From NCBI GenBank assembly GCA_964406135.1, contig CAYOQO010000001.1, positions 34,439 through 98,438 on the forward strand: a stretch of DNA of 64,000 bases, read 5' to 3'. Every line of letters begins with the position of its first letter. The stretch's first letter is position 1. The notes below the pieces were generated by a model. It made no database searches and had not been told where the DNA came from. It saw nothing but the letters and a program-made list of their open reading frames with translations. The translations under genes were made by a program, and so were the position numbers. This document shows, one piece after another, positions 11,882-63,813 of the stretch. The stretch is from an uncultured Pseudomonadota bacterium. GTDB lineage: Bacteria > Babelota > Babeliae > Babelales > Chromulinivoraceae.

Positions 11882-11896
11882 AAATAGTTAATTGGT

Positions 11897-11936
11897 AAAA
11901 AAGATCTTTGTCTAGTCTGGGCAAAGATCTTTTTTC
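11897..11936 (+). terminator. Rho-independent terminator
   Basis: AAAAAAGATCTTTG...CAAAGATCTTTTTT. Confidence 0.75.
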
Positions 11937-12027
11937 TGTTAAACTGTCTGCACGTTTACACAATCTTTTTTTTGTAGCATAGATAGTGGTACCTGTCGTA
12001 CCAATGTAACCATGAAAATTAAATACT

Positions 12028-27305: not shown

Positions 27306-27434
27306 GTGATGTTCCTTTCTATGTTTTGTTTGCAAAGATTGTATCTAAAATTTTGTCGACTTGCATCAAAATTTATTTTCTGTGTATGTTGGATGAAGAT
27401 GCAATAAAAAATAATTTTGGAAAAAAGGGAGCGC

Positions 27435-42087: not shown

Positions 42088-44040
42088 CTAGGCAGCTACT
42101 GTTGTAGTCTTTTGTGAAGCTTTTTTTGTTGCATTTCGTTTTGCACTACGCTTGATAGTGCCAATAGTGTTCAGCATTGCATCAATTTCTTTGCCAATAT
42201 TCGATTTTAATTCTTCTACGAAATTTTCGTGAGCATTTTGGTATCTTGGAACTGTGGTAACATCAAGAAGCCCAGGTTGTTGAGAAGGAGCATTCGCTGT
42301 TCCAGGAGCAGTGTTTTTCTTAAATGCCATTTCAAGATCTGGAAGAATATTTTCAAAAGTTTTTTGATAATTTTTTAAACGATCTTCAACAGCTTTGAGT
42401 TCTTTTGAATTTTGTATTTTTTTCAAATCATCAGATGTCATACTGACAATGTCGCTGCGTAAAGCATCAATATATGGGTGAAGTTGTCGAAATTCTGGAT
42501 AAAATTCATCTTCAAGTTTCTTTTTAATTTCAAGGGTGTAATTTTTGAATCCTTGAACAACCACACCATTGGTTAATTTTAATGGAAATGGAGTTGTGCC
42601 ATCAATCCAGCTGCTTTCTTGGGAAACACTCGTGTTGGTGGTATTGACGTTAACGCTTGCAGCTGTTGGATCTGCTGCAGGAAGTGTTGGCGTTAAAGCT
42701 CCATTTGCAACGACGAGTGTGTAATCAGGATAATTTTTTGCAATCTCATTTTGTATAAAATTAACAAATGTTGCTGCATGTTGAGCGTCAAAATCATCTT
42801 TGATATGACTTTCAAGATTGCTCATAGCATAGCTGTAAAGATCATTTTTATCTTTTGCGATTTCTTTTGGAGCTGCTGCATTAATTTCATTAGATTTTGG
42901 TTTTGAATTTGGCTCGCTTGAGCTATTTGTACCACTTCCAAATTCATTTTTGCTAGAACCAGATTGATCATATGGGCTATATCCTCCTCCATAGTTGTCA
43001 GAATAATTATCATAACCTGGATAATATTCACCATAATCTGATCCATATCCTGTAGGATTATAACCATAGCCTCCAGAAGAAGTTGATTTTGATTGTGCAG
43101 GTGATGATGCTTTGCGTGATATTGCCTCAGTTGCAGCTTGAGTTGCTTTTGCATCACGAAATTCTGCTTCTTTTGCAAGTTGTAAAGCTTCAGAATCCCA
43201 TTTTTGTAAAAAAGTTTCCAAGAGTGGCATTAAAGTATCAATGGTTTCATCACATGTTTCAAGGAAAGATTTTGTTTGCTTGAGATGTTTTTTCTCTTCA
43301 GCAAAACTTGCAGGAAGACCAAAATCATCTTCAATTACCAGTGCATCATTTTGAGCTGTTAAACTTTTCAGATACGCTTTAAGATGTTCAACTAATTTTT
43401 TGTCATTATCTTTAAGATCTTTTTTGCAAAGTTTTTGAGCTAAGCGATCATTTTTCAGTTGATAAATCTGACGTTTCATATTGGCAAATGTTGATTTATT
43501 TTTCCATTTTGCATCAATTTGTTCTGCACATTCTTTGGAGCTGTTAATTTTTTGGAAAATATCATCAATTCTTTGAATAATGGTGCTGATTAATTTTTTA
43601 AATTCTTCAAGATCAGACGATGGAGCTAAAGATGTCTCTGTTGATGATGAAGCAGCGGTTGCTGAAAGTTCTGGTTGTGCAGGGGGTGAAACGGTTAGAT
43701 GTGGTTCAACCATTTGAGCAATTGCTTGAATATCTTTAAAATCATCTTCTGACATTGAATTTAAAGTTTCTTCAAGTAACCGTTGGAATTCTGCAATTTC
43801 TTGAGGTGATCCATGAGTTTGTAAATCTTCTAAAAATTTTTGTCCCATTTGAACTTGCTCTGCAATTTCTTGTTCTGACATACCGCCAAAAACATCAGCA
43901 ACTGAAGGAAGTCCTGATTTAGCAACTCCTGGTGGAAGATTTGGTTTAAGGTTCATATCTTGTGCTGCAGTATCTGGTAGTATGAATCCATAAGAGAACA
44001 TGGCGCAGGTTAAAAAGCTTTTCTTTAAAAAAGTTTGCAT
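42088..44040 (-). CDS. Secreted hypothetical protein with coiled-coil regions and a central G/Y/S/N-rich low-complexity domain
   Basis: Signal-like N-terminus. LCD is SSGGYGYNPTGYGSDYGEYYPGYDNYSDNYGGGYSPYDQSGSSKNEFGSGTNSSSEPNSKPKSN. Confidence 0.65.
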   Translation of the reverse strand: MQTFLKKSFLTCAMFSYGFILPDTAAQDMNLKPNLPPGVAKSGLPSVADVFGGMSEQEIAEQVQMGQKFLEDLQTHGSPQEIAEFQRLLEETLNSMSEDDFKDIQAIAQMVEPHLTVSPPAQPELSATAASSSTETSLAPSSDLEEFKKLISTIIQRIDDIFQKINSSKECAEQIDAKWKNKSTFANMKRQIYQLKNDRLAQKLCKKDLKDNDKKLVEHLKAYLKSLTAQNDALVIEDDFGLPASFAEEKKHLKQTKSFLETCDETIDTLMPLLETFLQKWDSEALQLAKEAEFRDAKATQAATEAISRKASSPAQSKSTSSGGYGYNPTGYGSDYGEYYPGYDNYSDNYGGGYSPYDQSGSSKNEFGSGTNSSSEPNSKPKSNEINAAAPKEIAKDKNDLYSYAMSNLESHIKDDFDAQHAATFVNFIQNEIAKNYPDYTLVVANGALTPTLPAADPTAASVNVNTTNTSVSQESSWIDGTTPFPLKLTNGVVVQGFKNYTLEIKKKLEDEFYPEFRQLHPYIDALRSDIVSMTSDDLKKIQNSKELKAVEDRLKNYQKTFENILPDLEMAFKKNTAPGTANAPSQQPGLLDVTTVPRYQNAHENFVEELKSNIGKEIDAMLNTIGTIKRSAKRNATKKASQKTTTVAA

Positions 44041-47173: not shown

Positions 47174-47652
47174 TGATAGTTTTAGGCATTGATCCAAGTT
47201 TTACTGCAACGGGTTATGCCATCATGATACAACAAGGCAACAAACAACAACTGTTACATTTTGGTACTATTGCTTTACCTGCAAATCAAGAATTATCTGC
47301 GCGAATTGGTTTATTTCATGATTTTTTTCAAACTATTATTTTAAAATATCAGGTTACTCGAATTTCTTTAGAAACTCCTTTTTTAGGCAAAAATACACAA
47401 ACTTTTTTAAAACTTGGTTATCTGCGTGGTGTTGTTCATTTGCTTGTGCATCAACATAAACTTGAAATTGTTGAATTTTCGCCACGAGAAGTAAAATTGG
47501 CAGTTACGGGATTTGGTGGAGCAGACAAAGAACAAATTGCGCGCATGATTCAAATGCTTTTTCCTGGACTGGTGCAACAAAAATCGCATGATGTGACTGA
47601 TGCTATTGCAATTTCATTATGTGGATTGTGGCAAAAAAAATTAAAAACTTAA
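47173..47652 (+). CDS. ruvC: Holliday junction resolvase RuvC
   Basis: IVLGIDPSFTATGYAI (catalytic Asp), ...LETPF..., ...HDVTDAIAI. Its ATG overlaps the dnaB TAA. Confidence 0.9.
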   Translation: MIVLGIDPSFTATGYAIMIQQGNKQQLLHFGTIALPANQELSARIGLFHDFFQTIILKYQVTRISLETPFLGKNTQTFLKLGYLRGVVHLLVHQHKLEIVEFSPREVKLAVTGFGGADKEQIARMIQMLFPGLVQQKSHDVTDAIAISLCGLWQKKLKT

Positions 47653-49431
47653 TGATCCTGTTGCACCAACAGAATAAGTATTAATCGTTGCATTACCACC
47701 ACCAAGTGCAAATTCACCAGTTGCAATCAGTGAAAGATTTGGTGTAAATCGATATTCTTTCCAAGTGTATCCAAATTGGCTTGAAAGTTTTGCAGTCATC
47801 GCGCGTTGCGTTGCAGCACCTTGAACGTCAAGTGCTTGATTTAAATCTTGAGGGATACGATTTGAAGCATAGCGAGCGTCTTCAATTCCTGCAGGATATG
47901 GAGGAGTTGGAGCAATGTATGGTGGATTTGGTGGTGAAGGTAAAGGGTTTGTACCTCCAATAACACGAGGTAAAGATTTATTAATTGTTGCAAGTGGTTC
48001 ACAAAGATGAACGCTAATGACTGGATATACGGTAGGATCGCTTAAATAACCTCGTGAATCATCACTGACCTGACGACCTAAAACTGCATATTCATTTAAA
48101 ATTGCAGCATCAACGTGTAGTAAATGCACAGCATCAAGGTTTAAACTTTCACGACCACGGCACCAATATTCAGCGCCAACTGCAATATTCCAATTACGTT
48201 CATGAAAATCAAAAACGGCAGCGGCAGTTCCTTCAATATTAAATCGTGATATGACAGGAAGTGTGGTAATGTTTGCAGCTTGTGTGATGTAAGAAGGAAT
48301 TGCTCCAGTAGGATTGGTAGCTGTCGGCGTTGAAAGGAAATATTTTTGAATTAAAAGATATTTTGATCCTGGTCCGTTTTGTTTTAAATCAAAGGTACGA
48401 TAATTTGGTCGACGACCTGAACGAAGATGCATGACGTCACCTTTCAGCCAAAAATCAAGGCCACGATCTTTGCGAGCATCTTCCCAAATTTTATAATGTC
48501 CAGTAACTTCAGCTCCCACGCCCCAGTGTGCAGCATGACCAAAGACTGGTTCAAGAACGTGACGTCCTGTTGGCATATTGCCAGTCGGTGCTATAAATTT
48601 TGCTCCAAGGCTAAAAAAACCATTGTTGCTGTTATAAAAACTGTATCCAAAAGATGCACAAAGATCTGCAATACGAATTGCTACAAGACGATATGCAGAA
48701 AATCGAGCTTTATCAAGTGCGAATGGTTTATGAGTTCCTGATTGAATGATAATGTTGGTGCTGCTGGATAAAATTCCGGCTTGAAATGCTTCAGTAAGTG
48801 ATTTGTATTGATTTGCAATTGAAGGATATTGCAGCCAAATTTGTTCAGTTTCTAAATCGGCAGGAATATTAGCTGAGGCAACTTTTTCTGAAAGATTTGT
48901 TTGAATCGTCATAGCACCAATTGGAGCTCGGATGGTGCAATAAAATCCACGATTGTGATTATTGTGAGCAGCCTGAAATAATAAATCACAACCAACATGC
49001 ATGATATCAACATCCAAGGAGATGGTTCCTTGACTGCTCATTTCACCCATACCAAATTGGTAAGCATCAAGATCAGATTTTCCATTATTAGTTCCATAGG
49101 TCATCGTGTTAGTTCCAGACCAAAATGGCATTGATGCTATGTTTGCATTACACCCTTGACTGCATTGTCCACCAAAGTTGGTCATGTATTCTAAGGCAAA
49201 TGCAAATGTTTTTTTCCAGCCAAATTCATTGGGTTTATCTGCCATGTACATAGGTTTGATCATGTAAATTTCACGAATCGAAGAAGATGAAAATGCACGC
49301 ATATGAAAAAAGTTGCGGCTGTTTTTGCAATCAACAGGACATTCATTAACGACAGCTAAATCTTCACTAGCAAATAATGTAGTCGATGCTTGTAAGCTTA
49401 ATAATGAATATACAATTAACCATTTTTTCAT
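47641..49431 (-). CDS. Outer-membrane beta-barrel (porin/MOMP-like) protein, paralog A
   Basis: Signal peptide, Cys-containing N-terminus (NECPVDCKN), C-terminal ...GATGSLSF. Shares NRIPQDLN.ALD..GAA, FDLK.NG.GSKY.L.Q and ITTLPV with 56860-58737. Confidence 0.7.
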   Translation of the reverse strand: MKKWLIVYSLLSLQASTTLFASEDLAVVNECPVDCKNSRNFFHMRAFSSSSIREIYMIKPMYMADKPNEFGWKKTFAFALEYMTNFGGQCSQGCNANIASMPFWSGTNTMTYGTNNGKSDLDAYQFGMGEMSSQGTISLDVDIMHVGCDLLFQAAHNNHNRGFYCTIRAPIGAMTIQTNLSEKVASANIPADLETEQIWLQYPSIANQYKSLTEAFQAGILSSSTNIIIQSGTHKPFALDKARFSAYRLVAIRIADLCASFGYSFYNSNNGFFSLGAKFIAPTGNMPTGRHVLEPVFGHAAHWGVGAEVTGHYKIWEDARKDRGLDFWLKGDVMHLRSGRRPNYRTFDLKQNGPGSKYLLIQKYFLSTPTATNPTGAIPSYITQAANITTLPVISRFNIEGTAAAVFDFHERNWNIAVGAEYWCRGRESLNLDAVHLLHVDAAILNEYAVLGRQVSDDSRGYLSDPTVYPVISVHLCEPLATINKSLPRVIGGTNPLPSPPNPPYIAPTPPYPAGIEDARYASNRIPQDLNQALDVQGAATQRAMTAKLSSQFGYTWKEYRFTPNLSLIATGEFALGGGNATINTYSVGATGSLSF

Positions 49432-49654
49432 TTCAATTTCTCCTTCGTACTAAGGAAGATAAAATAAGAAAAAAAAATATGCAAACAAACAATTTTAAAC
49501 GGTTGAAAAGAATTATATATTTTATTATTTTTTTTGTGATGAAAAGCTTTAGGAGCAAAATTGAAAACATTTTCTTGACAACTTGGTCAAATATTTTTTA
49601 TTGTGCAATTGAAAGTGTCCTTATATATCCATCAAATAAAAATAGGAAGTATGT

Positions 49655-51412
49655 ATGACAAAAAATACAAATACTTATGCTTTACAAAAGTTGCTAAAAA
49701 ACAAAAAAAGTTTTTTAGCGCTTTGTTTCTTTGCAGCAACGAATTTAAGCATGAATCTGATAGCAGATGAAGAGTTGCACGAAGAAAAAATAGCAGAACA
49801 TAGAAAAGCAATGGGAGCAGCAACTCCAGGATCGAGTGCTGTAACTGGTGGATCAAATGTTTTGGCATCAAGTTCATCGCATGGTCATAGTTTATATTTT
49901 CCAGGGTACGTTGTGCCTGCAAATAATTTTGGATATGCAGGATCAACAGCAACTTTGGTAGTTCCTATCACAGATTCTCCAGCAAGAACAATTTTAGTAT
50001 CACCTGCAAGTTCTGCACCTGTAGCTGTAACATCTGCAGCTGTGGATAATGCTGGATTTGGTTATAATGTTTTTAATGCGTTAATTTCAGGCACGCAAAA
50101 CGTTGCGGTTGGTTCTACAGCATTGGATGCTGCAACAACTGGTTCAAATAACGTTGCTGCTGGTTATAGTGCTTTAGGTGCTGTCACAACTGGAGCGCAA
50201 AACGTTGCTGTTGGTACAAGTGCTGGTGGCGCAATTTTAACAACATCAGATTCAACAGCGGTTGGATATCAAGCGTTACTTTTAAACACTGGTGCGCAAA
50301 ACACTGCAGTTGGTTCTGGAGCACTTGATGCAAACGTTGCAGGAACTCCAAACGTTGCAGTTGGTTATAATGCACTTGGTGCAAACGTTTCGGGTAACAA
50401 TAACGTTGCCGTTGGTGCTAGTGCTGGTTTAACTTTGCTTACGAATCAAAATACTGTAGTTGGTGCTAGTGCTTTAGCTGCAGCAAGTGGTGCAAATAGT
50501 ACAGCAGTTGGTTATAATGCGTTAAATGCTAATACTGCTGCAAATATGACAGCAGTTGGTTCTGGTGCTTTAGCTGCAAATATTGGTGGAACTCCGAATA
50601 CAGCAGTTGGTTATAATGCTTTAACTACAAATACAACTGGTGCAAATAACGTTGCATTAGGCTCTACAGCTTTAACTTTAAATTTATCAGGTGCTCGTAA
50701 TGCTGCTGTTGGTACAGCTTCATTGGCAACTAACTCAACAGGTGTTGATAATACAGCTGTTGGTTATAATGCTTTGAATGCTTCAACAAGTGCAACAGGA
50801 AACAATTCTGGCTTTGGTAGTGGTGCTGGTGCATTAACTACAGGAGCAAATAATACGTATCTTGGTTTTAGCGCTGGATCTGCAATGACAACTGGTAATA
50901 ATAACATCATGATTGGTTCGGGAACAACATTCCAAGGTGCTGATTCTATTACAAGCTCAAACGTAATTGTTATTCGTGGTAGCACAGAGCAAACAAAAAC
51001 ATATATTGGTGGAATTCGTGGAAGAACAACAGATGCGGCAGATGCGATAGCTGTTTTAGTTTCATCAACAGGACAGTTAGGAACAGTGTCTTCATCAAAA
51101 AGATTTAAAGAAAACATTGTACCAGTTGATCAAGCAACTGCAGAAAAATTAGCAGATCTTAATATTGTTACTTTTACCTACATCAGTGATAAATCTGGTA
51201 GAGTTCAATACGGAGCAATTGCTGAAGAAGTATTTGAAATATTCCCAGAATTAATTGTATATAATAAAGATGGTGAAATTGAGACTATTCAATATCATCA
51301 CTTTGTTCCATTGTTAATTAAATATGCTCAAGTACAAAATGCTGAAATTAAATCACTTAAAGCTGTAGTTGCAGCTTTAATGAAACGAATTGAAGCTTTA
51401 GAAAATAAATAA
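49655..51412 (+). CDS. Secreted repeat fibre protein 1 with a C-terminal tail-fibre-type intramolecular chaperone (peptidase S74-like) module
   Basis: Signal peptide ending NLIA/DEE. Conserved N-module (EEKIAEHRKAMGAATPGSS...YFPGYVVPANNFGYAGSTATLVVPIT). About 20 repeats of N-(T/V)-A-V-G-x-x-A-L-x-x-N-x-x-G. C-terminus SSKRFKENIVP...YGAIAEEV...PELI...IQYHHFVPLLIKY plus a coiled coil. Confidence 0.8.
   Translation: MTKNTNTYALQKLLKNKKSFLALCFFAATNLSMNLIADEELHEEKIAEHRKAMGAATPGSSAVTGGSNVLASSSSHGHSLYFPGYVVPANNFGYAGSTATLVVPITDSPARTILVSPASSAPVAVTSAAVDNAGFGYNVFNALISGTQNVAVGSTALDAATTGSNNVAAGYSALGAVTTGAQNVAVGTSAGGAILTTSDSTAVGYQALLLNTGAQNTAVGSGALDANVAGTPNVAVGYNALGANVSGNNNVAVGASAGLTLLTNQNTVVGASALAAASGANSTAVGYNALNANTAANMTAVGSGALAANIGGTPNTAVGYNALTTNTTGANNVALGSTALTLNLSGARNAAVGTASLATNSTGVDNTAVGYNALNASTSATGNNSGFGSGAGALTTGANNTYLGFSAGSAMTTGNNNIMIGSGTTFQGADSITSSNVIVIRGSTEQTKTYIGGIRGRTTDAADAIAVLVSSTGQLGTVSSSKRFKENIVPVDQATAEKLADLNIVTFTYISDKSGRVQYGAIAEEVFEIFPELIVYNKDGEIETIQYHHFVPLLIKYAQVQNAEIKSLKAVVAALMKRIEALENK
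51092..51409 (+). other. S74-like intramolecular chaperone/autocleavage module of fibre 1
   Basis: S-S-K-R-F-K fits the S-x-x-R-x-K Ser/Lys dyad spacing of endosialidase and tail-fibre C-terminal chaperone domains. About 96% nt identity to 53314-53580. Confidence 0.65.
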
Positions 51413-51432
51413 AATTATTTAATGTAATTTTA

Positions 51433-51472
51433 AAAGAAATGATGTCACTATACGTGGCATCATTTCTTTTTT
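51433..51472 (+). terminator. Rho-independent terminator after fibre 1
   Basis: AAAGAAATGATGTCAC-TATAC-GTGGCATCATTTCTTT then TTT. The T-run overlaps a TTGACA hexamer. Confidence 0.75.
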
Positions 51473-51537
51473 GACAAAGTTATAGAAATAAAGAAATATG
51501 ATTCGTATATAATTTTATCCCAAAAAAAGGAGAATAA

Positions 51538-53655
51538 ATGGGAAAAACTTTACAGTTATTTATTTTTTTAAGCACAAGTTTATTTGTTTCAACAAATCTG
51601 GTAGCAGATGAAAATTTTGATGAAGAAAAAATAGCAGAACATAGAAAAGCGATGGGTGCAGCAACTCCAGGATCAAGTGCTGTAACAGGCGGATCAAATG
51701 TTTTGGCGTCAAGCTCATCTCATGGTCATAGTTTATATTTTCCAGGTTATGTAGTTCCTGCAAATAATTTTGGATATGCAGGATCAACAGCAACTTTAGT
51801 AGTTCCTATTACCAGCTCACCAGCAAGAACAATTTTAGTTTCGCCATCAGCTTCAGCGCCTGCAGCAGTAACATCATCTGCTGTTGACAATACTGGTTAT
51901 GGTTACAATGTTTTTAATGCTTTAACATCAGGAACTCAAAACGTTGCTGTTGGATCAACTTCTTTTGGCCTTGCAACAACTGCAATAGATTGTGTTGCTG
52001 TTGGATATGGTTCTTTGGGCTCAGTGACAACTGGCGGTAATAATACTGCAGTTGGTTCTGGCGCTGGAGGTGCAATTTCAACAACTGCAAATTCAACAGC
52101 TGTTGGATATCAAGCATTGCTTTTAAATACAGGTGCACAAAATACTGCAGTAGGCTCTGGTGCTCTTGATGCAAATACATCAGGAACTCCAAACGTTGCT
52201 GTTGGTTATAATGCGCTTGGTGCAAACGTGACAGGTGGTAATAACGTTGCTGTTGGTGCAAATGCTGCTGCTGCAACAACGACTGGTAATAATACTGCTG
52301 TTGGTTCAAGTGCAATGGTACTCAACACTTCAGGATTTCCAAACGTTGCAGTTGGTTATAATGCTTTAAGCTCAAACTTAACAGGTGGTAATAACGTTGC
52401 TGTTGGGCCAAGTGCTGCAGCTGCGGTATTGACAGGAAGTAACACTGCAGTTGGTTCATCAGCTTTAGCTGCAGCATCAGGTGCAAATGCTGTTGCGGTT
52501 GGTTATCAAGCTTTACTTGTTAATACAGGGGCACAGAATACAGCCGTTGGTTCAAATGCTTTGGATGCAAATACGTCAGGAACTCCAAACACTGCTGTAG
52601 GTTATAATGCTTTAGGAACTAATATTTCTGGAAATAATAACACAGCTGTTGGTGCAAGTGCTGGAGCTCTGTTGTTAACGAGTGGCAATACTGCAGTTGG
52701 AACAAATGCTTTGGCTGCTGTAAGCGGCGCAAACTGTACCGCGGTTGGTTATAATGCTTTGCAATCTAACACTGCCGTTCAAAATACTGCGGTAGGTACT
52801 GGAGCAATTGCAAACGGTGCAAGTGGTTCAGATACAACAGCTATTGGATATAATGCATTACTTGTTAATGCTGCAGCTTTTAATACTGCAATTGGTTCAG
52901 TATGTATGGATGCAAATACTTCAGGTAATCAAAATACATCAATTGGTTATAATTCAATGGGAACAAATATTTCAGGTAACGATTCTGTAGCTGTTGGTGC
53001 AAATTCACTTCGCGATTCAACCGCAAGTCAAAACGTTGCGGTTGGTTCTGGTGCAGGACTTATAACAACTGGTACTAATAATACCTATGTTGGGTATAGT
53101 GCTGGTTCTGCAATGAGTACAGGAAACAATAATGTTATGCTTGGAGCAAGTGCGACTTTCTTGGGTTCTGATTCTGCAACATCATCAAACTTGATTGTGA
53201 TTGGAAATACATCTTCAACAAAAGCCTATATTAGAGGTGTGAGTGGTGTTACAACAGATGCAGCAGCTGTAGCAGTTTTAGTTTCTTCAACAGGACAACT
53301 TGGTACAGTTTCATCATCAAAAAGATTTAAAGAAAATATTGTACCAGTTGATCAAGTAACTGCAGAAAAATTAGCAGATCTTAATATTGTTACTTTTACC
53401 TACATCAGTGATAAATCTGGTAGAGTTCAATACGGAGCAATTGCTGAAGAAGTATTTGAAATATTTCCAGAATTGATTGTGTATAATAAAGATGGTGAAA
53501 TTGAAACTATCCAATATCATCACTTTGTTCCACTTTTAATTAAATATGCTCAAGTTCAAAATGCTGAAATTAAATCACTTAAAGCTCAAGCGCAAACATT
53601 TCAATCAGTGGTTGCAGCTTTAATAAAACGAATTGAAGCTTTAGAAAATAAATAA
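51538..53655 (+). CDS. Secreted repeat fibre protein 2 with an S74-like C-terminal chaperone module
   Basis: Same N-module and C-module as fibre 1, with about 28 N-x-A-V-G repeats. AAAGGAG SD. Confidence 0.8.
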   Translation: MGKTLQLFIFLSTSLFVSTNLVADENFDEEKIAEHRKAMGAATPGSSAVTGGSNVLASSSSHGHSLYFPGYVVPANNFGYAGSTATLVVPITSSPARTILVSPSASAPAAVTSSAVDNTGYGYNVFNALTSGTQNVAVGSTSFGLATTAIDCVAVGYGSLGSVTTGGNNTAVGSGAGGAISTTANSTAVGYQALLLNTGAQNTAVGSGALDANTSGTPNVAVGYNALGANVTGGNNVAVGANAAAATTTGNNTAVGSSAMVLNTSGFPNVAVGYNALSSNLTGGNNVAVGPSAAAAVLTGSNTAVGSSALAAASGANAVAVGYQALLVNTGAQNTAVGSNALDANTSGTPNTAVGYNALGTNISGNNNTAVGASAGALLLTSGNTAVGTNALAAVSGANCTAVGYNALQSNTAVQNTAVGTGAIANGASGSDTTAIGYNALLVNAAAFNTAIGSVCMDANTSGNQNTSIGYNSMGTNISGNDSVAVGANSLRDSTASQNVAVGSGAGLITTGTNNTYVGYSAGSAMSTGNNNVMLGASATFLGSDSATSSNLIVIGNTSSTKAYIRGVSGVTTDAAAVAVLVSSTGQLGTVSSSKRFKENIVPVDQVTAEKLADLNIVTFTYISDKSGRVQYGAIAEEVFEIFPELIVYNKDGEIETIQYHHFVPLLIKYAQVQNAEIKSLKAQAQTFQSVVAALIKRIEALENK
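53314..53652 (+). other. S74-like intramolecular chaperone/autocleavage module of fibre 2
   Basis: SSKRFKENIVPVDQVTAEKLADLNIVTFTYISDKSGRVQYGAIAEEVFEIFPELIVYNKDGEIETIQYHHFVPLLIKY... with a 7-aa insertion (QAQTFQS) in the terminal coiled coil. Confidence 0.65.
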
Positions 53656-53676
53656 AATTATTTAATGTAATTTTAA

Positions 53677-53713
53677 AAAGAAAAGGTGTCAAAAAAGACA
53701 CCTTTTCTTTTTT
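53677..53713 (+). terminator. Rho-independent terminator after fibre 2
   Basis: AAAGAAAAGGTGTC-AAAAAA-GACACCTTTTCTTT then TTT, followed by TTGACA as after fibre 1. Confidence 0.75.
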
Positions 53714-53779
53714 GACAAAGTTTTAGAAATGAAGAAATATTGATTTATATTATTTTATAACCCTAAAAAAGGAGTTTTT

Positions 53780-56700
53780 ATGGGGCAAATCAAAAAAATT
53801 TTTATTATTGTTTTTCTTGCCGTAACAAATTTAGGATTTACGAATCTGAGAGCAGATCAAAATCTTGATGATGAAAAAATAGCAGAACATAGAAAAGCAA
53901 TGGGTACGGCAACTCCATTTTCAAGCTCTATGACCGGTGGATCAAATATTTTAGCGTCAAGCGCATCTAATGGTCATGGATTTATCTTACCAGGGTACGT
54001 TGTGCCTGCAAATAATTTTGGATATGCAGGATCAACAGCAACTTTGGTAGTTCCTATCACAGATTCTCCAGCAAGAACAATTTTAGTATCACCTGCAAGT
54101 TCTGCACCTGCAGCTGTAACATCATCAGCTGCGGATAATGCTGGATTTGGTTATAACGCATTTAATGCGTTAACTTCAGGTATTCAAAACGTTGCGGTTG
54201 GTTCAACAGCATTGGATGCTGCAACAACTGGATCAAATAACGTTGCTGTTGGTTACAGTGCTTTAGGTGCAGTAACTACTGGTGCTCAAAACGTTGGTGT
54301 TGGTACAAGTGCTGGTGGCGCAATTACGACAGCTTCAAATTCAACAGCAGTCGGATATAATGCATTGCTTGTCAATACTGGATCTCAAAACACAGCAGTT
54401 GGTTCAACAGCATTAGATGCAAACGTTGGAGGAATTCAAAATATTGCTGTTGGTTATAATTCTTTAGGTGCAAATATTTCTGGAAATCAAAATGTTGCAA
54501 TTGGTGTTGGTGCTGGATCTACAAGTACCACAGCTTCAAGTGTTACAGCAATTGGAGCATCAACCTTATCATTAAACACAAGTGGTCAAAATACTGCAGT
54601 TGGTGCAATTGCTTTAGCTTCAAACGCTGGAGGGACACCAAACACAGCTGTTGGGTATAATGCCTTAGGTAATAATTCCACAGGAAATCATAACACGGCA
54701 GTTGGTGCAAATGCTGGAAATTTAGTATTAACATCAAATAATACGGTTGTTGGTTCAAGTGCTTTAGCTGCAGCATCGGGTGCAGATTCTACAGCTGTTG
54801 GATATAGTGCATTATTGAATAACACTGCAGCTAATAATACAGCAGTTGGTTCTGGTGCTCTTGATGCAAACATTGGCTGAACTCCAAACACGGCGGTTGG
54901 TAAAGATGCACTTGGAGCAAATACAACAGGGAATCAACATACTGCTGTTGGATATCAATCTTTAGCAACCAATACTGGTGGAAATGATTGTACAGCTATT
55001 GGATTTCAAGCATTAAATTTAAGTACAGCATCAAATAATACTGCAGTTGGTTCAAGTGCATTGACCAATAATAGTTCAGGAACTCAAAATACTGCAGTGG
55101 GTAAAACAGCATTGGCTGCAGTGACAACAACCAATGATAGTACAGCTGTTGGATATAATGCTTTAGTGTTAAATACTGCTGCACAAAGTACTGCAGTTGG
55201 CTCACAAGCTTTAGCTGCAAATACGAGTGGTGCTGGAAATACAGCTGTTGGATTTCAAACATTAAATTTAAATCAAACTGGAGGTGCAAATACAGCTGTT
55301 GGTATTCAAGCTTTATTAAACAATACTGGCAATAATAACACAGCTTGTGGAGCTTCAGCGCTTCTTGGAAATACCTCTGCTGCAAATAATACCGCAGTTG
55401 GTAAAGCTGCAATGCAATCAAATTCAACAGGCGCTGATTGTACTGCAATTGGGTATAATGCTTTAAATGTAAGTACTGCATCTTTTAATACTGCAGTTGG
55501 ATCAATTGCATTAGATGCAAATACAACAGGAAATCAGAATGTATCTGTTGGATATAATTCAATGGGAACAAATATTTCTGGTAATGATTGTGTTGCGGTT
55601 GGTGCAAACTCACTTCGTGATTCAACAGCGAGCCAAAACGTAGCAATTGGTTCTGGTGCAGGACTTGTTACAACAGGTACAAATAATACATATCTTGGAT
55701 ATGCTGCTGGTACTGGCGCAACGACAGGTTCAAATAATGTAATTATTGGTGCTTCATCTGTACCATCTTCGACTACAATTTCTAATCAAACGGTTCTTGG
55801 AAATTCATCAACAACGACAGCCTATTTATTTGGTATTCCTGGTGCAATTGCATCATCAAATTTAGTTACGACGACTGGTACTTCAACAGGACAGTTAGGA
55901 ACTATTCCTTCAACAGCAAACAGTGGTATTCCATTAATTGCACAAGGAAATGGAGTAAGTCCTGTTTATGGAACAGCGCTGGTTGCTGGTGGTGGAACAG
56001 GAGTGACATCATTTGGACAAAACAATTCATTAATCTTGAGTGGTACATCAGGTACTGGAGCATTGCAACAAGTGACAGGTGGAACATCAAATACTGTTTT
56101 AGCTGCTGCAGGTGCTGCAACAGTTCCAACATTTAAAACACTTTCTGCTAACATGCAAATATTTACGGCAAATGGAACATACACACCAACAGCAGGGATG
56201 GTTTATTGCGATGTTGAATGTTTGGGTGCTGGTGGTGGTGCAGGTGGTTGCAGTGCTGTAAACTTTTCTGTCTCAGGAGGTGCTGGATCTGGTGCTTACA
56301 GCAGAAAATGTTTCTCTGCTGCAACGATAGGTGCATCACAAACTATTGTGATTGGTACTGGAGGATCAGGTGGTATTGGTGCTGCTGATGGTACTGATGG
56401 CGGAGCTACAACCTTTGGTGGAACATTATTGACTGCTGCTGGTGGTGGTCGTTCGTTAGCAAATTCATCAATTGGAGGAGCTATTGCTGCAGCTGCAGTT
56501 ATTGCAAATGCTATTTGTATTCCTGGAAGACATGGTGGTCCATCATTAACTCCTACAATTGCTGCAATTGGAACATCGGGAGCAGGTGCTGATAGTCCTT
56601 ATGGTACTGGTGGTTATGCACAATTATTTTTCATTGCAACGCCAACATCGGCCTTTGATGGAGTTGCAGCTTCAGGATATGGAGCTGGTGGTGGTGGAGC

Positions 56701-56785
56701 TTCAGTAGGAACTGGTGGTCTTGTGAAAAATGGCGGTTCAGGAACTTCAGGACTTGTCATTATTACAGAATACATTCTTTCGTAA
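53780..56785 (+). pseudogene. Fibre gene 3: a single 1002-codon frame interrupted by one in-frame TGA (54878-54880). The distal domain differs (Gly-rich, no S74 module)
   Basis: ORF-track pieces 53780-54880 and 55061-56785 are in the same frame, and no other stop lies between 54881 and 55060. The downstream piece has no SD or ATG (TTG only). The TGA sits where the paralog has GGA (ANIG-G-TPNTAVG). Confidence 0.75.
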
Positions 56786-56802
56786 AAAGTTTTTATTACG
56801 TA

Positions 56803-56840
56803 AAAAGAGAGCTGCAGAATTTCTGCAGCTCTCTTTTTTT
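56803..56840. terminator. Strong bidirectional terminator between fibre 3 and OMP paralog B
   Basis: AAAAGAGAGCTGCAG-AATTT-CTGCAGCTCTCTTTT then TTT. Confidence 0.85.
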
Positions 56841-56859
56841 ATAGATATCAAATCTAAAA

Positions 56860-58737
56860 TTAAAAGTTGAGTGATCCTTGAAGACCAGCGCTCCACATTT
56901 GAACAGCATTGTTTGTATTGTTTGTAAACTCTGCACTGCCAATGAATGATAAGTTTGGAGTGTAGCGGCAATCATTCCATGTGTAACCAAACTGTGCAAA
57001 TACTTTACCAGTGAAAGCTTTTGCAGCAGCAGCACCACAGATATCCAATGCTTCATTTAAATCTTGCGGGATACGATTTGTTGAAACACGACCGTCAACA
57101 ACTCCTGTTGGCCATGCGCCTGACGCTGGGAAACCAAATGGAGCTGTAGTGCCTGTCAATTGAACTGCATTTTGTGATTTATTGATTTTTGCTGCAGGTT
57201 CACATAAAGGAATTACAGAAGGAACTGCTGTATAAGTTGAGCTTGCAAATGTAGATATTGTTGCGTCTGGGTTAGAGCCACCAGCTTGACGACCAACAAC
57301 TGCAAAATTATTTAAATTTTCTTTGTGTTGATCAACACATGAACACATGTCGATGCTTACAGTTTCTTTTGTTCTACCCCAGAATTCACCAGCAACTGCC
57401 AAATTCCAGTTATTGTGATGATAATCAAACATTAATGATGCTGAACCTTCAGCTGCAAATTTTGAAAATACTGGAAGTGTTGTAATATTAATTGCTTGAG
57501 TTAAAGATCCTGCAACAAAACCTGTTGTATTCGCAGTAGTTGCGACTGAAGCAGCTTCTTGATGATAGTGCTGTAAAAGAATATATTTTGAACCAAGACC
57601 GTTTGCTTTTAAGTCAAATGAACGCATGCTTGGAGTTCTGCCTGGAAGAAGGTGTAAAACTTCACCTTGGAACCAAACATCTAAATATTTAGATTTAGCG
57701 TCATTTTCCCAAGCTTTGTAATGACCAACAACGTCAGCACCAACGCCCCAAGCGCCGCCACGACCAAATATTGGCTCAAGAGCATAACGTGCTGTTGGAA
57801 CGTTGCCTGTTGGGCATGTTGTTTTAAAACCAAGACCAAAGAAACCTTTTTCATTTGCAAATACGTTATAACCAAGAACAAATGAAAGATCTGCTAAACG
57901 AATTTCAGTTTGTTTGCATGTTGAAATTCTACCATAGTGAAGTTCTGTTTGGTATGGTTGACGCATAGTATCAAGTGTACCATTGCTTCCAACGCCACCA
58001 GCAATTGAAGCGCCAACGTTTTCTGCGCGATTTGCTAAGCTTGGATAGTTTGTGACATAATTAATATTTGCAGGTCCAGTTGTGACTTGTGAAAAATAAT
58101 TTACATCTCTTCTTTCAGAAGTATCTGTCATTTGAGGATCGATACTGATTGCGCCAATTGGAGCATGAACTTTAAAATACATTCCGTGTTCATCTTTTTT
58201 ATGAACAAAATACAGCATAAAATCTGTACCAACTTGAGTAATTTTTGGATTGATAGTTAATGTTCCACTAATTACATTTGGATCATAATTTAAACCTGTA
58301 GGTGTACCTGTTGTTGTTGGAATAGTTCCGCCAGCAGCATTACCACATCCAAAGTTCCACATATCGATATCTGCAGTACCACCGTTGTTACCAACAGTCA
58401 TTGCATTTGTTCCTGCAGCACCCCAAGAGAACATTGAACCTAGATTTTTGCAGCTGTTACACTTTGCACCAAAATTTTGCATATATTGAGTTGCAAATGA
58501 AAAAGTTCCATTCCATTCATCGCGATGACTTTCAGTTTGGAATAAGTTTTTTTCTAGAGTGATTTCACGAGAAGCATCCGATGAGAAGGCGCGAGGGAAC
58601 CAAGTATTTTTACTTTGAGAACACGGTTGATTTGAACAAACTGCTGAGCAGTCAATACCTGAAACAGAACAGGCATTAACAATTTGACCTATCGTTAAGA
58701 TTGCGGCTACTTTGAGCCATAAAGTATTTTTTTTCAC
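56860..58737 (-). CDS. Outer-membrane beta-barrel (porin/MOMP-like) protein, paralog B
   Basis: GTG start behind an AAAGGAG SD (VKKNTLWLKVAAILTIGQIVNA signal peptide). Cys-rich N-terminus CSVSGIDCSAVCSNQPCSQ. C-terminal ...LQGSLNF. The ORF-track start at 58899 lacks an SD. Confidence 0.7.
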   Translation of the reverse strand: MKKNTLWLKVAAILTIGQIVNACSVSGIDCSAVCSNQPCSQSKNTWFPRAFSSDASREITLEKNLFQTESHRDEWNGTFSFATQYMQNFGAKCNSCKNLGSMFSWGAAGTNAMTVGNNGGTADIDMWNFGCGNAAGGTIPTTTGTPTGLNYDPNVISGTLTINPKITQVGTDFMLYFVHKKDEHGMYFKVHAPIGAISIDPQMTDTSERRDVNYFSQVTTGPANINYVTNYPSLANRAENVGASIAGGVGSNGTLDTMRQPYQTELHYGRISTCKQTEIRLADLSFVLGYNVFANEKGFFGLGFKTTCPTGNVPTARYALEPIFGRGGAWGVGADVVGHYKAWENDAKSKYLDVWFQGEVLHLLPGRTPSMRSFDLKANGLGSKYILLQHYHQEAASVATTANTTGFVAGSLTQAINITTLPVFSKFAAEGSASLMFDYHHNNWNLAVAGEFWGRTKETVSIDMCSCVDQHKENLNNFAVVGRQAGGSNPDATISTFASSTYTAVPSVIPLCEPAAKINKSQNAVQLTGTTAPFGFPASGAWPTGVVDGRVSTNRIPQDLNEALDICGAAAAKAFTGKVFAQFGYTWNDCRYTPNLSFIGSAEFTNNTNNAVQMWSAGLQGSLNF

Positions 58738-59035: not shown

Positions 59036-60205
59036 TTAAAACAATTTTGGAAGTTGGCAATGAAAAGTCCCTAAAGCGTCGTCGGTTAAAATCAATGAAC
59101 GTTTTTGTAAAATGCTTAAGCTTGAGGATATTCCACAATAAATTGCGTTATTAATAATGCGCGGAGCAAATAAATGCGAATTTCTACTTATTGGTTGAAG
59201 TCCGTAGGGATCCGTTTGCTCAATGCTTTTTGAAGCATGATTATAACGAGCAATCTGGCATGTTTGAGATAAATGATTAAAGCTTACAAAGTAAATTGAT
59301 TCTGCGGTATAAATTGGCAAAAGTGGATAAATTGATTCGTAAAGACGCTCTGGATTTATACCAATAAGCAATATTTTTGGCAGCTGAAAAACAAATAAAT
59401 TTCTTATATCCCATGAGCCATCAATGCTTTTGTTTAACTCATTGCACGTAAATTCAAAAAAATCAGACTCTTCACTTTCTTTTTGTGTAAAATTTAAAAA
59501 GAATCCATGCTCTTCGCTTTGCATAGAAAGAAAGCATGGCCGCTGCTCACTATTCGAAAAAGTAAAAATCTTTTCACTGCTTGCAAAATTTGATGACTCT
59601 TTTTTTTCTTGCTTTTGATTAATTTGAAAAAAAACAGATAAAAATTTTTCTGTCCATGGCGTTTTGCAAATTGCATATTCATTATGTTGATTTTTATTTA
59701 TATAAAAAAGAGTGCCATTTATTTTTTGAGGATATAAATCATCGCAAGAATCTTGCATATTTGATAATGAATAAATAGTGCTGCTCCGATTTGAAATATC
59801 ACATAAAAAAATTTTAAAATTATTTTCGTATTTTCCCATAAAATAAAATTGTTCATCACTGATCCAAGTAATGCAAGATATTGCAGAAATCGGTTCGTAC
59901 AATGGAATAACTCGAGGAGTTCGTTTATTAAAATATTTAATTTTTATTCTGCCGCGATCTATAAAACTGCATGCATTTTTACTTGGCAATATTTGTACCG
60001 ACGAAGGTAAAAAAAGAGAACTTAATTCTTTAAAAGCTACCAATTCTTTGGTATTCCACATCCATAACTCAAGATCATCAGGAGTTGTTTGATGAATCAG
60101 AAGCAGGTTTTCATCATCAATCGCTCCAACAGGATAAAGATATTCCGTACAATCAATCGTCATTGAAAACAAAATTAAAAACGTAAAAAAAATAAATTTA
60201 TTCAA
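59036..60205 (-). CDS. Hypothetical secreted protein
   Basis: Signal peptide MNKFIFFTFLILFSMT. No family recognised. Confidence 0.5.
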   Translation of the reverse strand: MNKFIFFTFLILFSMTIDCTEYLYPVGAIDDENLLLIHQTTPDDLELWMWNTKELVAFKELSSLFLPSSVQILPSKNACSFIDRGRIKIKYFNKRTPRVIPLYEPISAISCITWISDEQFYFMGKYENNFKIFLCDISNRSSTIYSLSNMQDSCDDLYPQKINGTLFYINKNQHNEYAICKTPWTEKFLSVFFQINQKQEKKESSNFASSEKIFTFSNSEQRPCFLSMQSEEHGFFLNFTQKESEESDFFEFTCNELNKSIDGSWDIRNLFVFQLPKILLIGINPERLYESIYPLLPIYTAESIYFVSFNHLSQTCQIARYNHASKSIEQTDPYGLQPISRNSHLFAPRIINNAIYCGISSSLSILQKRSLILTDDALGTFHCQLPKLF

Positions 60206-60327: not shown

Positions 60328-61338
60328 TCATGCCGTTTTTTTAACTAATTTTTTAAATTTTTTAATGAATTTTTTTTTATTCATTTTACTTTGAAATATT
60401 TTAAGTTCATGTATCTGTAATATGCACTCTGCTAAATTAATTGACCCTAAAATAGTATGTTTTTGGAGCAAGTGTTCAACCTGTGATGGTAAAAAACTTT
60501 TGTTACAGCTTGATAAAATTATTGCCAAGCACCCAGCCATGCATGCTGTTGCCATCGAACTACCAGATACTTTTGTTATTACAAAATTCTGTGTTAATTT
60601 TAGCCACATAAAAACTGCAAGATCTTTTCCCGGCATCATAAATTTTAAAAAGTTCACTGAACAAATTTGGTACGTATTTTTTTGTATAAATTCAGAATTT
60701 TTTTCTGCCATAACAACATACGTAAACGTTTTTAAAAGATTTTTGATCTGTTGATTTTGCAAGTCATTGGTATTATCAAAATCATCAATATGTAAACTTA
60801 AACAAACAATATCAACTAATTCCTGCTGCAATTTTTGCAAAGCTTGAATTAAAGTTTGTTTACTACACAATCCATCATCATTAAAAATTGGTACTGATAT
60901 AATTTCAACATACGGAGCAATTTGACGAATTAAACTTGCAACCGATGCCCCATGATTTTTTTTTAACTGTTTTTCAGAAAAATCACTTAATTTTTTCAAA
61001 TTTGGTGAAAAATTTTTAACCCCGCCTTGTGTTTGATCGCAAATGCAAAATCTTTCAAAATTTTGCATTTTTGCCACACCTTTTAAAAAATATTCAGAAT
61101 TGAATTTTTTTTGTTGATAAAAATCTATCATTTCTGAAGTTTCATGAAAATGAGTATCCAAAATTGCAACCTTAACCCCTTTTCCGGGATTTTGAATATG
61201 ATCAGATAATTTTTCTAAATTTAAAATTTTTAAATGCCAAAATAGGTCAAAATTTTTTTGAACAGGAAAAAAAACAAAAGAGCTTAATTTTGAAAAAAAT
61301 AAAAACAAAATAAAAAAGAGCAACTTTTGAACTTCCAT
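60328..61338 (-). CDS. Small secreted subtilisin-like (S8) serine peptidase candidate with a Lys-rich tail
   Basis: Asp-His-Ser order motifs GVKVAILDTHF, NHGASVASLI and VSGSSMATACMAG. Signal peptide. C-terminus KMNKKKFIKKFKKLVKK. Confidence 0.55.
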   Translation of the reverse strand: MEVQKLLFFILFLFFSKLSSFVFFPVQKNFDLFWHLKILNLEKLSDHIQNPGKGVKVAILDTHFHETSEMIDFYQQKKFNSEYFLKGVAKMQNFERFCICDQTQGGVKNFSPNLKKLSDFSEKQLKKNHGASVASLIRQIAPYVEIISVPIFNDDGLCSKQTLIQALQKLQQELVDIVCLSLHIDDFDNTNDLQNQQIKNLLKTFTYVVMAEKNSEFIQKNTYQICSVNFLKFMMPGKDLAVFMWLKLTQNFVITKVSGSSMATACMAGCLAIILSSCNKSFLPSQVEHLLQKHTILGSINLAECILQIHELKIFQSKMNKKKFIKKFKKLVKKTA

Positions 61339-62691: not shown

Positions 62692-63813
62692 TTACATATT
62701 GTTCGCAGAAACTGGCATCACCAAATACATTAAATGATACATATCACCTTCTGCTTTAAAAATAATTGGACGAGCATTGTTTTTTAAAAAAAAGGTTAAT
62801 TGATCACTATCAAATGATTGAAGACCTTGCAAAAGATACGGTGAATAAAATCTCATTTCTAATTTTTCAGCATCAAAATTACCAATTGATAATGTTTCTT
62901 CCAAATTTCCAATATCATTGTTTTTCATAAAAACTTTTAATTGGTTTTTATTAAACGTAAAATTAGTTGCCAAAAACTGTCCTGAAAGCAAGCATGATGA
63001 TCTTCGTAAAGTTTTGACAAAATCAGATTTGCTCAAAGTTGCAGGAATAAAAGAATCATGCTGTAAAATTGATTCATATTTTGGAAATTCATCTGCTAAA
63101 AGCCGTGTAAAAAAATTAAAATGATCACCGGAAAATACCAATTGTTGCTCGCAAGTTCCTAAAAAAATCATTGTTGCTGCAGAATTTTCAAGTATTTTTT
63201 TTAATTCAAAAATTGCACGGCGTGGAAGCAACCATTTTTTTTCTTTTTCAAGTACATAGCGATCAGATGTTACTTGAGCTAAGCAATGACCATCAGTTGA
63301 TGTTAATTTAAATTCTTTAGCCGAAATTTCTAAAAATAAGCCATTAAGCGATGGTGTTGCATTGTTTTGAGGAATTAAAAAGGAAACTTTACCAAGCATG
63401 TTAGATAAAAATTGAGCATCTATTTGCATTAAATTTTCAATGCGTTCAGGCAGTGGTGGAAATTCTTCAGCACTTTTAATATTGAATGAAACATTAATAT
63501 GTTGTTGTGATTTTAAAGTAATTTGACTGTCATCAACGATACATTCAATATCACCATCCATTTCTTTGACAATATCAAAAATCTTTTTTCCAGGAACTAA
63601 AAATTGTGCAAACTCTGTAGAACTTGTTGTGAGCAAGCAACTATACTGCAAACTAATTTCCAAGTCTGTTGCTTTCAAGATTAATTCTTTGTTTGAAATT
63701 TGAAACAAAATGCATGACGTTGAAGGCATTGTTGTTTTTTTTGTACAAATTGGTTGCATGAAAAATAATGTTGTCAATAAATCTTTTTGACTCACCACAA
63801 ATGAATAACTCAT
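62692..63813 (-). CDS. dnaN: DNA polymerase III beta sliding clamp
   Basis: 373 aa with a three-domain clamp pattern (..LLTTL..........P.....ILF......L.L.ATDLEIS..., ...LPRRAI.EL.K.L..., C-terminal ...YLVMPV). Lies immediately upstream of recF. Confidence 0.85.
   Translation of the reverse strand: MSYSFVVSQKDLLTTLFFMQPICTKKTTMPSTSCILFQISNKELILKATDLEISLQYSCLLTTSSTEFAQFLVPGKKIFDIVKEMDGDIECIVDDSQITLKSQQHINVSFNIKSAEEFPPLPERIENLMQIDAQFLSNMLGKVSFLIPQNNATPSLNGLFLEISAKEFKLTSTDGHCLAQVTSDRYVLEKEKKWLLPRRAIFELKKILENSAATMIFLGTCEQQLVFSGDHFNFFTRLLADEFPKYESILQHDSFIPATLSKSDFVKTLRRSSCLLSGQFLATNFTFNKNQLKVFMKNNDIGNLEETLSIGNFDAEKLEMRFYSPYLLQGLQSFDSDQLTFFLKNNARPIIFKAEGDMYHLMYLVMPVSANNM

Follow-up and report, generated by a model that had tools for sequence, protein, structure and literature searches.

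The closest described counterpart of the genes considered here is the mosaic adhesive trimer (MAT) family of Bdellovibrio bacteriovorus, which comprises 21 chromosomal paralogs that fall into S74 and non-S74 subgroups (Caulton et al. 2024, PMC10769870). A MAT is composed of a signal peptide, a conserved N-domain, and a trimeric fibre that ends in an S74 chaperone/protease or in another tip. MATs have been shown on the surface of the predator, they are deposited in a vesicle inside the prey, and self-cleavage has been shown for Bd3182, while the surface element bound by the N-domain is stated as unknown (PMC10769870). In this work, we analyzed a 64,000-nucleotide stretch of contig CAYOQO010000001.1 (the window), which comes from an uncultured bacterium of the family Chromulinivoraceae in the phylum Dependentiae, and we describe an array of three tandem genes (fibres 1, 2, and 3) that encode phage-tail-fibre-like proteins and are flanked by two genes for outer-membrane proteins (OMP-A and OMP-B). 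An earlier note on this DNA had proposed that a phage fibre architecture has been domesticated here as a cell-surface adhesin, with the two OMPs as candidate anchors or partners.

The Dependentiae live as obligate parasites of protists. The domain identities, the boundaries of homology, the genomic context, and the synteny of the fibres can be observed directly in the genes and are described below. Based on these observations, we consider it fairly probable that the fibres are exported, trimeric, phage-type proteins that serve the bacterium itself, most likely as adhesins through which the cell surface makes contact with protists, and are not parts of a virion. A cellular use of a phage-type fibre is the best reading because the proteins combine S74 domains and homology to viral fibres with Sec-like N-termini, and because their genes lie outside any phage context at a position conserved among relatives.

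The three fibre genes are all encoded on the plus strand. Fibre 1 (49655-51412) is a protein of 585 residues with a predicted signal peptide at residues 1-37, an N-terminal segment (N-module) at residues 38-131, repeats from residue 132 to about residue 450, a neck, and an S74 domain at residues 480-585 (51092-51409). Fibre 2 (51538-53655) has 705 residues, with the predicted signal peptide at residues 1-23, the N-module at residues 24-117, and the S74 domain at residues 593-705 (53314-53652). Fibre 3 (53780-56785) spans 1001 codons and comprises a predicted signal peptide at residues 1-25, the N-module, repeats, a linker with GGTG motifs, and a Gly_rich_2 tip (56171-56767) in place of S74.

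In the profile search of the C-termini that the earlier note had called for, Peptidase_S74 (PF13884) was found in fibre 1 with 50.2 bits (E 3.3e-13) and in fibre 2 with 48.3 bits (E 1.3e-12), both well above the Pfam cut-off of 22, and orthologs in three related assemblies (L001, L019, and L020) match the same profile. Ser480 and Lys485 of fibre 1 (SSKRFK) are invariant across an alignment of 50 sequences, and this dyad aligns with the S...K of SGIEYK in the T5-like L-shaped tail fibre 8hqz. When the AlphaFold2 (AF2) model of fibre 1 was compared with the PDB using Foldseek, the best matches were the ICA domains of MyRF (7dc3), phage GA-1 (3gud), and K1F endosialidase (3gw6), with probabilities of 0.8-1.0, TMt of about 0.55, and E-values that are weak (at least 0.03) because the whole fibre was used as the query. 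The model also contains a long C-terminal helix (residues 547-584), as seen in solved ICA domains. Given the invariant Ser/Lys dyad, the alignment with 8hqz, and the matches to ICA structures, cleavage is predicted between S479 and S480 in fibre 1 and between S592 and S593 in fibre 2, which would free 106 and 113 residues, respectively. Searching the S74 profile against the PDB reached 6f45 and MyRF alone, and no Bdellovibrio MAT (Bd) entry.

No S74 domain was found in fibre 3 in the Pfam scan. The end of this fibre matches Gly_rich_2 (PF21722) with 31.3 bits (cut-off 24.3) over profile positions 3-224 of 226, and its ortholog in L001 does so with 36.2 bits. The same stretch also matches the tail-fibre C-termini in the PHROG families phrog_6202, 454, 12796, and 863, while a comparison of the Gly-rich tip with the PDB gave no match. 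Within one paralog family, two S74 tips and one Gly_rich_2 tip are carried on a common N-module and stalk. The stalk is built from units of 16-17 residues with the consensus N-T/V-A-V-G-x-x-A-L-x-x-N-x-x-G, of which stepwise counting gave approximately 18-19 in fibre 1, 26-27 in fibre 2, and 34 in fibre 3. Autocorrelation of the stalks peaks at 17, 33, 50, 67, 83, and 100 residues, indicating a super-repeat of three units and 50 residues. A sequence search of the PDB with the whole fibre returned no match. Fibre 2 is a mosaic, in which both ends resemble fibre 1 and the distal stalk resembles fibre 3 (repeat families D5-D10).

The stalk and both types of tips are homologous to phage and giant-virus fibres. 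In a tblastn search against phage genomes, the tail fibres of Roseobacter phage CRP-1, Pelagibacter phages HTVC111P/112P, and Methylophilales phage Venkman matched residues 117-704 with approximately 35% identity (E 4e-36 to 2e-42), and PHROG tail-spike, tail-fibre, and virion-structural families matched the fibres as well (best E-value 3e-51). In IMG/VR, relatives with 32-47% identity are encoded on no fewer than 124 contigs, the matches starting mostly from residue 90-118 or so. A Foldseek search of BFVD with the fibre 1 model retrieved S74 proteins of phages and giant viruses, the top one being an S74 protein of Tupanvirus with 34% identity, and a Klosneuvirus protein was also among the matches. 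The same layout of repeats plus S74 is present in BFVD in proteins of Tupanvirus, Gaeavirus, Edafosvirus, Bodo saltans virus, a Marseillevirus, and a virophage; these giant viruses and the Dependentiae have protist hosts in common. The matches to phage genomes begin at residue 117 or beyond, that is, after the signal peptide and the N-module.

The cell-specific part of the fibres is therefore the N-terminus, made up of the signal peptide and the N-module. All three fibres start with a basic n-region and a hydrophobic core, followed by NLIA, NLVA, or NLRA and then D at the predicted cut, and these features are present in all fibre copies and orthologs. The N-module is common to the three fibres (72-90% identity at the protein level and 82-87% over 300 nt) and carries, right behind the predicted cleavage point of the signal peptide, a (D/E)EKIAEHR motif and then a FPGY...NFxYxG junction. 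The EKIAEHR-type motif is confined to the fibres at this site (DDQIALHR in L017) and is kept even where the remainder of the N-module switches type among relatives. A profile of the N-module found only 8 matches in 1.84 billion representatives, all of them similar low-GC (guanine plus cytosine) Dependentiae-like fibres, and in one of the eight the conserved FPGY...NFxYxG core sits internally.

Most of what the earlier note had said about the fibres themselves stands. The open reading frame (ORF) list places three plus-strand paralogs at the same coordinates; inspection by eye supports the cleavable-looking signal peptides ending in NL(I/V/R)A before D; the N-module is conserved as claimed; the repeat counts of 20, 28, and more than 35 are close to our recount; the C-terminal modules of 106 and 113 residues in fibres 1 and 2 are S74; the proposed Ser/Lys dyad exists as an S-x4-K pair invariant among the 50 aligned homologues; and the resemblance to phage tail fibres holds for the stalk and both tips. 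The description of a three-gene array needs one correction, in that the coordinates are right while gene 3 is not an intact ORF owing to an in-frame TGA (54878-54880), which is treated below.

The genomic context is cellular on both sides. Upstream of the array lie murD, an ileS-like gene, rplI, dnaB, and ruvC; downstream of OMP-B lie genes for a 389-residue hypothetical protein and an S8 peptidase, then recF and dnaN; and past the end of the window lie genes for a 686-residue protein, a tyrosine recombinase, and a GIY-YIG protein. The recombinase, located approximately 7-8 kb past OMP-B and outside the window, scores as XerD/XerC (E 7e-85). From about position 37 kb, upstream of the array, through to the end of the window, and over another 3.4 kb taken from a different assembly, no phage genes were found, and a PHROG search of the neighbours gave no phage-family match except a generic protease, in agreement with the earlier observation of housekeeping neighbours and no phage genes near the array.

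The gene order dnaN, recF, S8 peptidase, hypothetical protein, OMP-B, fibre(s), OMP-A, ruvC, dnaB is kept in four related Chromulinivoraceae assemblies (L001, L017, L019, and L020), among which L001, a Candidatus Chromulinivoraceae metagenome-assembled genome (MAG), is the best genomic relative. What varies is the fibre content: L001 has one S74 fibre and one Gly_rich_2 fibre, L017 has one intact Gly_rich_2 fibre of 964 residues, and L019 and L020 have one S74 fibre of 547 residues each. Because of the housekeeping neighbours and the conserved position with varying fibre content, the site between the OMP genes is not a prophage; it is a fixed chromosomal slot with changing fibre cargo.

Two of these genes illustrate how such fibres may be misread in assemblies. 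The second fibre gene of L001 is broken by an N run (approximately 11800-12078) just past the signal peptide and the EKIAEHR motif, so that its apparent N-terminal truncation is an artefact of the assembly gap. In L019 (8139-9800), the source gene caller recorded a 258-residue S74 fragment, while the frame is open for the full 547-residue fibre including a signal peptide. As in this case, repeat-rich fibre genes are easily under-called.

The fibres resemble MATs, which we compared by their published description, in several respects. Both families are chromosomal, multi-copy, and outside any prophage; both combine a signal peptide (judged by eye in the Dependentiae fibres), an N-terminal segment conserved within the respective family, and a long fibre with either an S74 domain, predicted to be self-cleaving here as well, or an alternative tip; in both, modules are exchanged between paralogs, and the organism is a parasite or predator that needs to recognize a target cell. 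There are also differences. The N-module of the Dependentiae fibres has no detectable relation to other families and is predicted to be disordered, whereas MATs have a beta-rich N-domain of approximately 130 residues. The stalk here consists of 16-17-residue N-T-A-V-G repeats, and none of the three fibres contains the MAT capping-loop motif V-G-G/N-x-x-x-P-x-x-x-L. Furthermore, the target here would be a protist rather than a bacterium. Compared at the level of sequence, the fibres thus lack one defining feature of MATs, the capping-loop motif, and a relation between the N-terminal segments is unproven.

Phage fibres with a C-terminal chaperone, such as K1F endosialidase, T5 pb1, and the tail fibres of HTVC111P/112P and CRP-1, have a homologous stalk and S74 domain with the Ser-x4-Lys dyad in common, and Gly_rich_2 tips likewise occur at the C-termini of phage tail fibres. 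Unlike these, the fibres described here have a Sec signal peptide and a lineage-specific N-module in place of the N-terminus for virion attachment, and their genes do not lie in a phage genome. The same repeat-S74 layout is found in the 'tail fiber domain' or 'Peptidase S74 domain-containing' proteins of bacteria and giant viruses, which owe their names to automated annotation. A search with fibre 2 found more than 7,400 significant homologues, most of them with PF13884, under names such as 'tail fiber domain-containing protein', 'Chaperone of endosialidase', and 'trimeric autotransporter adhesin'. By a crude rule, N-termini that resemble signal peptides are present in about half of the best 120. 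Relatives are encoded in genomes of Bacteroidota, Acidobacteriota, a betaproteobacterium, and Akkermansia, and tandem signal-peptide arrays with cellular neighbours also occur in other phyla, as in the 1.48-Mb MAG L002, where four tandem genes with the order signal peptide-repeats-S74 lie beside ftsY and prmC. Within this broad class, the Dependentiae fibres are set apart by an N-terminal class of their own and a fixed site between OMP genes. With respect to the proposal of a domesticated phage fibre serving as a surface adhesin, the cellular use is supported by context, synteny, and signal peptides, while the novelty is not, given the thousands of homologues and the precedent of the Bdellovibrio MATs, which follow the same logic (PMC10769870).

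A plausible course of events can be outlined for these fibres. Each fibre gene forms its own transcription unit, as the sequence shows by a box of the TTGACA type, a ribosome-binding site (GGAG), and a hairpin-T-run terminator. The product would cross the inner membrane via Sec and be cut after NL(I/V/R)A. The S74 domains of fibres 1 and 2 would then trimerize and template the folding of the N-T-A-V-G stalk, after which Ser480/Lys485 in fibre 1 and Ser593/Lys598 in fibre 2 would carry out self-cleavage, leaving a mature fibre that ends in ...GQLGTVS. Trimerization and self-cleavage are proposed because they are the established behaviour of K1F endosialidase, T5 pb1, MyRF, and Bd3182. Fibre 3 would retain its Gly_rich_2 tip, which is of the type found at phage-tail-fibre ends, although in this strain the fibre is truncated by the nonsense codon. 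The N-terminal segment with EKIAEHR and FPGY...NFxYxG would replace the virion-attachment domain and is expected to keep the fibre bound to the cell envelope, where the fibre would mediate adhesion to the protist host or to the membrane of the host vacuole.

Several points weigh against this interpretation. Export, trimer formation, cleavage, location, and target of the fibres are all inferred, and the role in host adhesion is deduced from the lifestyle of Dependentiae. The signal peptides were assigned by eye, and the route across the outer membrane is not assigned; a PulD-like secretin is present in the cultured relative C. destructans (PMC6561590). The monomer AF2 model of fibre 1 is of moderate quality (pLDDT 68 overall) and falls below 50 in the N-module, which is predicted to be disordered, so that no fold can be assigned to the putative anchor. 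The direction of fibre transfer, from phage to cell or the reverse, is not readable from the data. Finally, the stop codon in fibre 3 indicates that at least one fibre is dispensable in this strain.

This stop codon (ANIG*TPNTAVG) replaces a Gly found in the paralogs and in the ortholog, which reads ANIGGSPNTAVG in L017, and downstream of it the frame stays open for 634 further codons. We considered an alternative genetic code in which UGA encodes Gly (table 25) and rejected it, since TGA ends six other ORFs of the window, including recF, and the housekeeping genes are intact under table 11. An assembly error is unlikely, as the same TGA is present in a second (Logan) assembly, L027, which is 99.99% identical and probably derives from the same or a related read set. 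Fibre 3 is probably a recent pseudogene that arose by the premature stop.

The disordered N-module leaves room for a different fate of the proteins. Instead of staying bound to the cell, the fibres may be released into the medium, outer-membrane vesicles, or the host vacuole, where they would act as lectin-like or effector proteins or form a loose coat, and we regard this as unlikely though worth serious consideration. Neither a lipobox nor a barrel nor any other recognizable anchor was found in the N-module in the Pfam scan or the AF2 model, which fits release. Moreover, C. destructans has signal peptides on 44% of its coding sequences and releases vesicles early in infection (PMC6561590), and the deposition of MATs inside prey offers a parallel from Bdellovibrio (PMC10769870). 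However, the mature N-terminus carries a strictly conserved motif, which points to a role in binding, and the phage and MAT fibres act while attached by their N-terminal ends. Both points favour cell-bound fibres.

If the fibres are held at the envelope, the flanking OMPs are candidates for a partner. OMP-A (47641-49431, minus strand) has 596 residues and a predicted signal peptide MKKWLIVYSLLSLQASTTLFA followed by S; OMP-B (56860-58737, minus strand) has 625 residues, a GTG start at 58737, and a predicted signal peptide (M)KKNTLWLKVAAILTIGQIVNA followed by C. The two are paralogs with 37% identity and have C-terminal Phe residues (...SLSF and ...SLNF). An AF2 model of OMP-A built from 99 homologues (pLDDT 89.8, pTM 0.87) matches, in Foldseek, barrels of 12-14 strands with a probability of 1.0, including 4rl8 (a COG4313 channel), FapF, FadL, OmpG, CymA, and autotransporter beta-domains. 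The flanking genes encode true outer-membrane beta-barrels, as had been suggested for the two minus-strand paralogs that bracket the array. No Pfam or NCBIfam model matched this family, which has 225 detectable homologues, assigned to Dependentiae or Babeliales wherever they are reliably named. Members of the OMP family have a stretch rich in Cys behind the signal peptide (consensus CxxxxCxxxC), and their genes are found in tandem arrays (L022 and L023). This may be the principal family of outer-membrane proteins in the phylum, which reportedly lacks genes for lipopolysaccharide.

We asked whether the block is a single module, a dedicated system in which the barrels anchor or translocate the fibres, perhaps via EKIAEHR, and the answer is that this is doubtful. 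In its favour, all four related assemblies keep OMP-B, fibre(s), and OMP-A in this order, and the EKIAEHR-type N-terminus is restricted to fibres at this site; the surface partner of the MAT N-domain is still an open question; and the OMP-A barrel resembles, among many others, polypeptide-conducting or plugged barrels of 12-14 strands such as FapF and autotransporter beta-domains. On the other hand, these Foldseek matches are generic barrels, and the conservation of OMP-A (83-91%) contrasts with that of the fibre N-modules, which are divergent or of another type. The syntenic genomes are all close relatives, so the synteny may be mere inheritance. The OMPs form a multi-copy family that, in the more distant Dependentiae L022 and L023, makes up arrays of 3-4 genes with no S74 fibre gene within 10 kb; conversely, S74 fibre triplets in L024 and L030 lie among housekeeping genes with no adjoining OMP. 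Accordingly, the suggestion that the OMPs are anchors or partners holds for their identity as OMPs and for local synteny but not for a dedicated partnership, and the co-occurrence expected in related genomes is seen in the four close assemblies but not in L022, L023, L024, or L030. The link between OMPs and fibres is seen in one clade of close relatives alone, and beyond local synteny a dedicated system is not indicated.

A more specific form of the same idea, that the slot is a display device in which the EKIAEHR N-terminus docks into or passes through the flanking Dependentiae-specific barrel, is a speculation to which we give slightly less credence still. If true, secreted S74 (MAT-like) fibres would have, in the barrel, the first partner in the envelope to be identified, and a fibre type common to giant viruses and virophages would emerge as a common tool for binding protist surfaces.

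The triplets mentioned above have an organization of their own. Those of L024 (8401-13245; 536, 540, and 538 residues) and L030 (5123-12968; 878, 869, and 867 residues) are collinear, with abutting or overlapping genes whose products are 44-61% identical. Such nearly equal lengths would suit a 1:1:1 heterotrimer, which is only an idea; to our knowledge, no such heterotrimer has been described for S74 fibres.

It is highly improbable that the genes are the remnant of a prophage or tailocin, that is, leftover tail-fibre genes without a present role in the cell. Matches of all three fibres to phage tail-fibre families, the nonsense codon in fibre 3, and a GC content (0.37-0.41) slightly above that of the flanks would be expected of a remnant, and the last is explained by the Gly/Ala/Thr-rich composition of the proteins. 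Against it stand the lack of any other phage gene over the span searched, where the sole recombinase is XerD/XerC-like, the position conserved among relatives, and the intact ORFs of fibres 1 and 2 with their own terminators and ribosome-binding sites. In addition, every copy has a signal peptide, unlike virion fibres, and the phage matches end at the N-module boundary. Membership in the trimeric autotransporter adhesins (type Vc; YadA, Hia, BadA), which is suggested by Joint Genome Institute (JGI) labels on several homologues, by N-x-A-(V/I)-G repeats such as N-T-A-V-G-x-x-A-L that resemble YadA-head/Hep_Hag repeats, and by the presumed trimeric surface fibre, is refuted by the absence of the defining C-terminal anchor, since the fibres show no YadA_anchor or Hep_Hag/HIM match in Pfam at E <= 0.1 and have the reverse polarity, with attachment at the N-terminus and a C-terminal S74 chaperone or Gly-rich tip instead of a membrane anchor barrel.

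Taking the fibres as cellular proteins of phage type, the genes are concrete candidates for host recognition in Dependentiae, and the differing sets of fibres at one fixed site suggest that host range evolves through module swapping, as in phages and Bdellovibrio. S74-terminated fibres, known so far from phages, Bdellovibrio, and animal MyRF, would thereby gain a fourth setting, and the flanking barrels offer a small, testable candidate for the partner of such fibres at the surface. With an architecture that occurs widely and a logic that has been published before, the conceptual gain is modest; in the literature searched, there was no earlier mention of such fibres in this phylum.

The intergenic regions of the array contain signals consistent with separate expression of the genes. 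A consensus scan of the locus for promoters and terminators gave counts not above shuffled expectation, and an alignment of the intergenic regions then revealed the terminators. All three fibre genes have a strong hairpin and a T-run at the 3' end. The one after fibre 1 (51436-51466, plus strand) has a 13-bp stem and -17 kcal/mol, and the one after fibre 2 (53680-53707, plus strand) has -15.5 kcal/mol; the two stems are unlike in sequence with the pairing preserved. Each is followed on the plus strand by a TTGACA box (at 51471 and 53712, respectively) and then a GGAG ribosome-binding site ahead of the next fibre gene. Between the convergent genes for fibre 3 and OMP-B, a hairpin at 56802-56838, not assigned to either strand, has a 17-bp stem and -28.4 kcal/mol and is probably a bidirectional terminator for both genes. 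Variation by a shufflon or invertase was also considered for the fibre locus and rejected, there being no inverted repeats of at least 60 nt and the nearby recombinase scoring as XerD/XerC.

Several features of the surrounding DNA deserve mention. The 389-residue protein (59036-60205) and the divergent S8 subtilase (60328-61338), both on the minus strand, are always found between OMP-B and recF; the former has no family match, and the latter is 38% identical between relatives. In more distant Dependentiae, a TPR protein of approximately 400 residues is located beside OMP arrays. On the other side, a minus-strand gene at 42088-44040 encodes a 650-residue protein with a signal peptide and a low-complexity stretch rich in Gly, Tyr, and Ser (GGYGYNPTGYGSDYGEYYPGYDNYSDNYGGGYSPYDQSG); it occupies the same position in relatives with 61-75% identity and has no family match. 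Two very large ORFs, 27417-33461 (2014 residues) and 2026-5217 (1063 residues), have no Pfam match at E <= 0.001. The dnaA gene (12028-13431) is approximately 50 kb from dnaN-recF (62692-63813) rather than adjoining it. Finally, the GC skew changes sign near 58 kb, in step with the change of gene orientation from fibre 3 to OMP-B, and may reflect coding-strand bias rather than replication.

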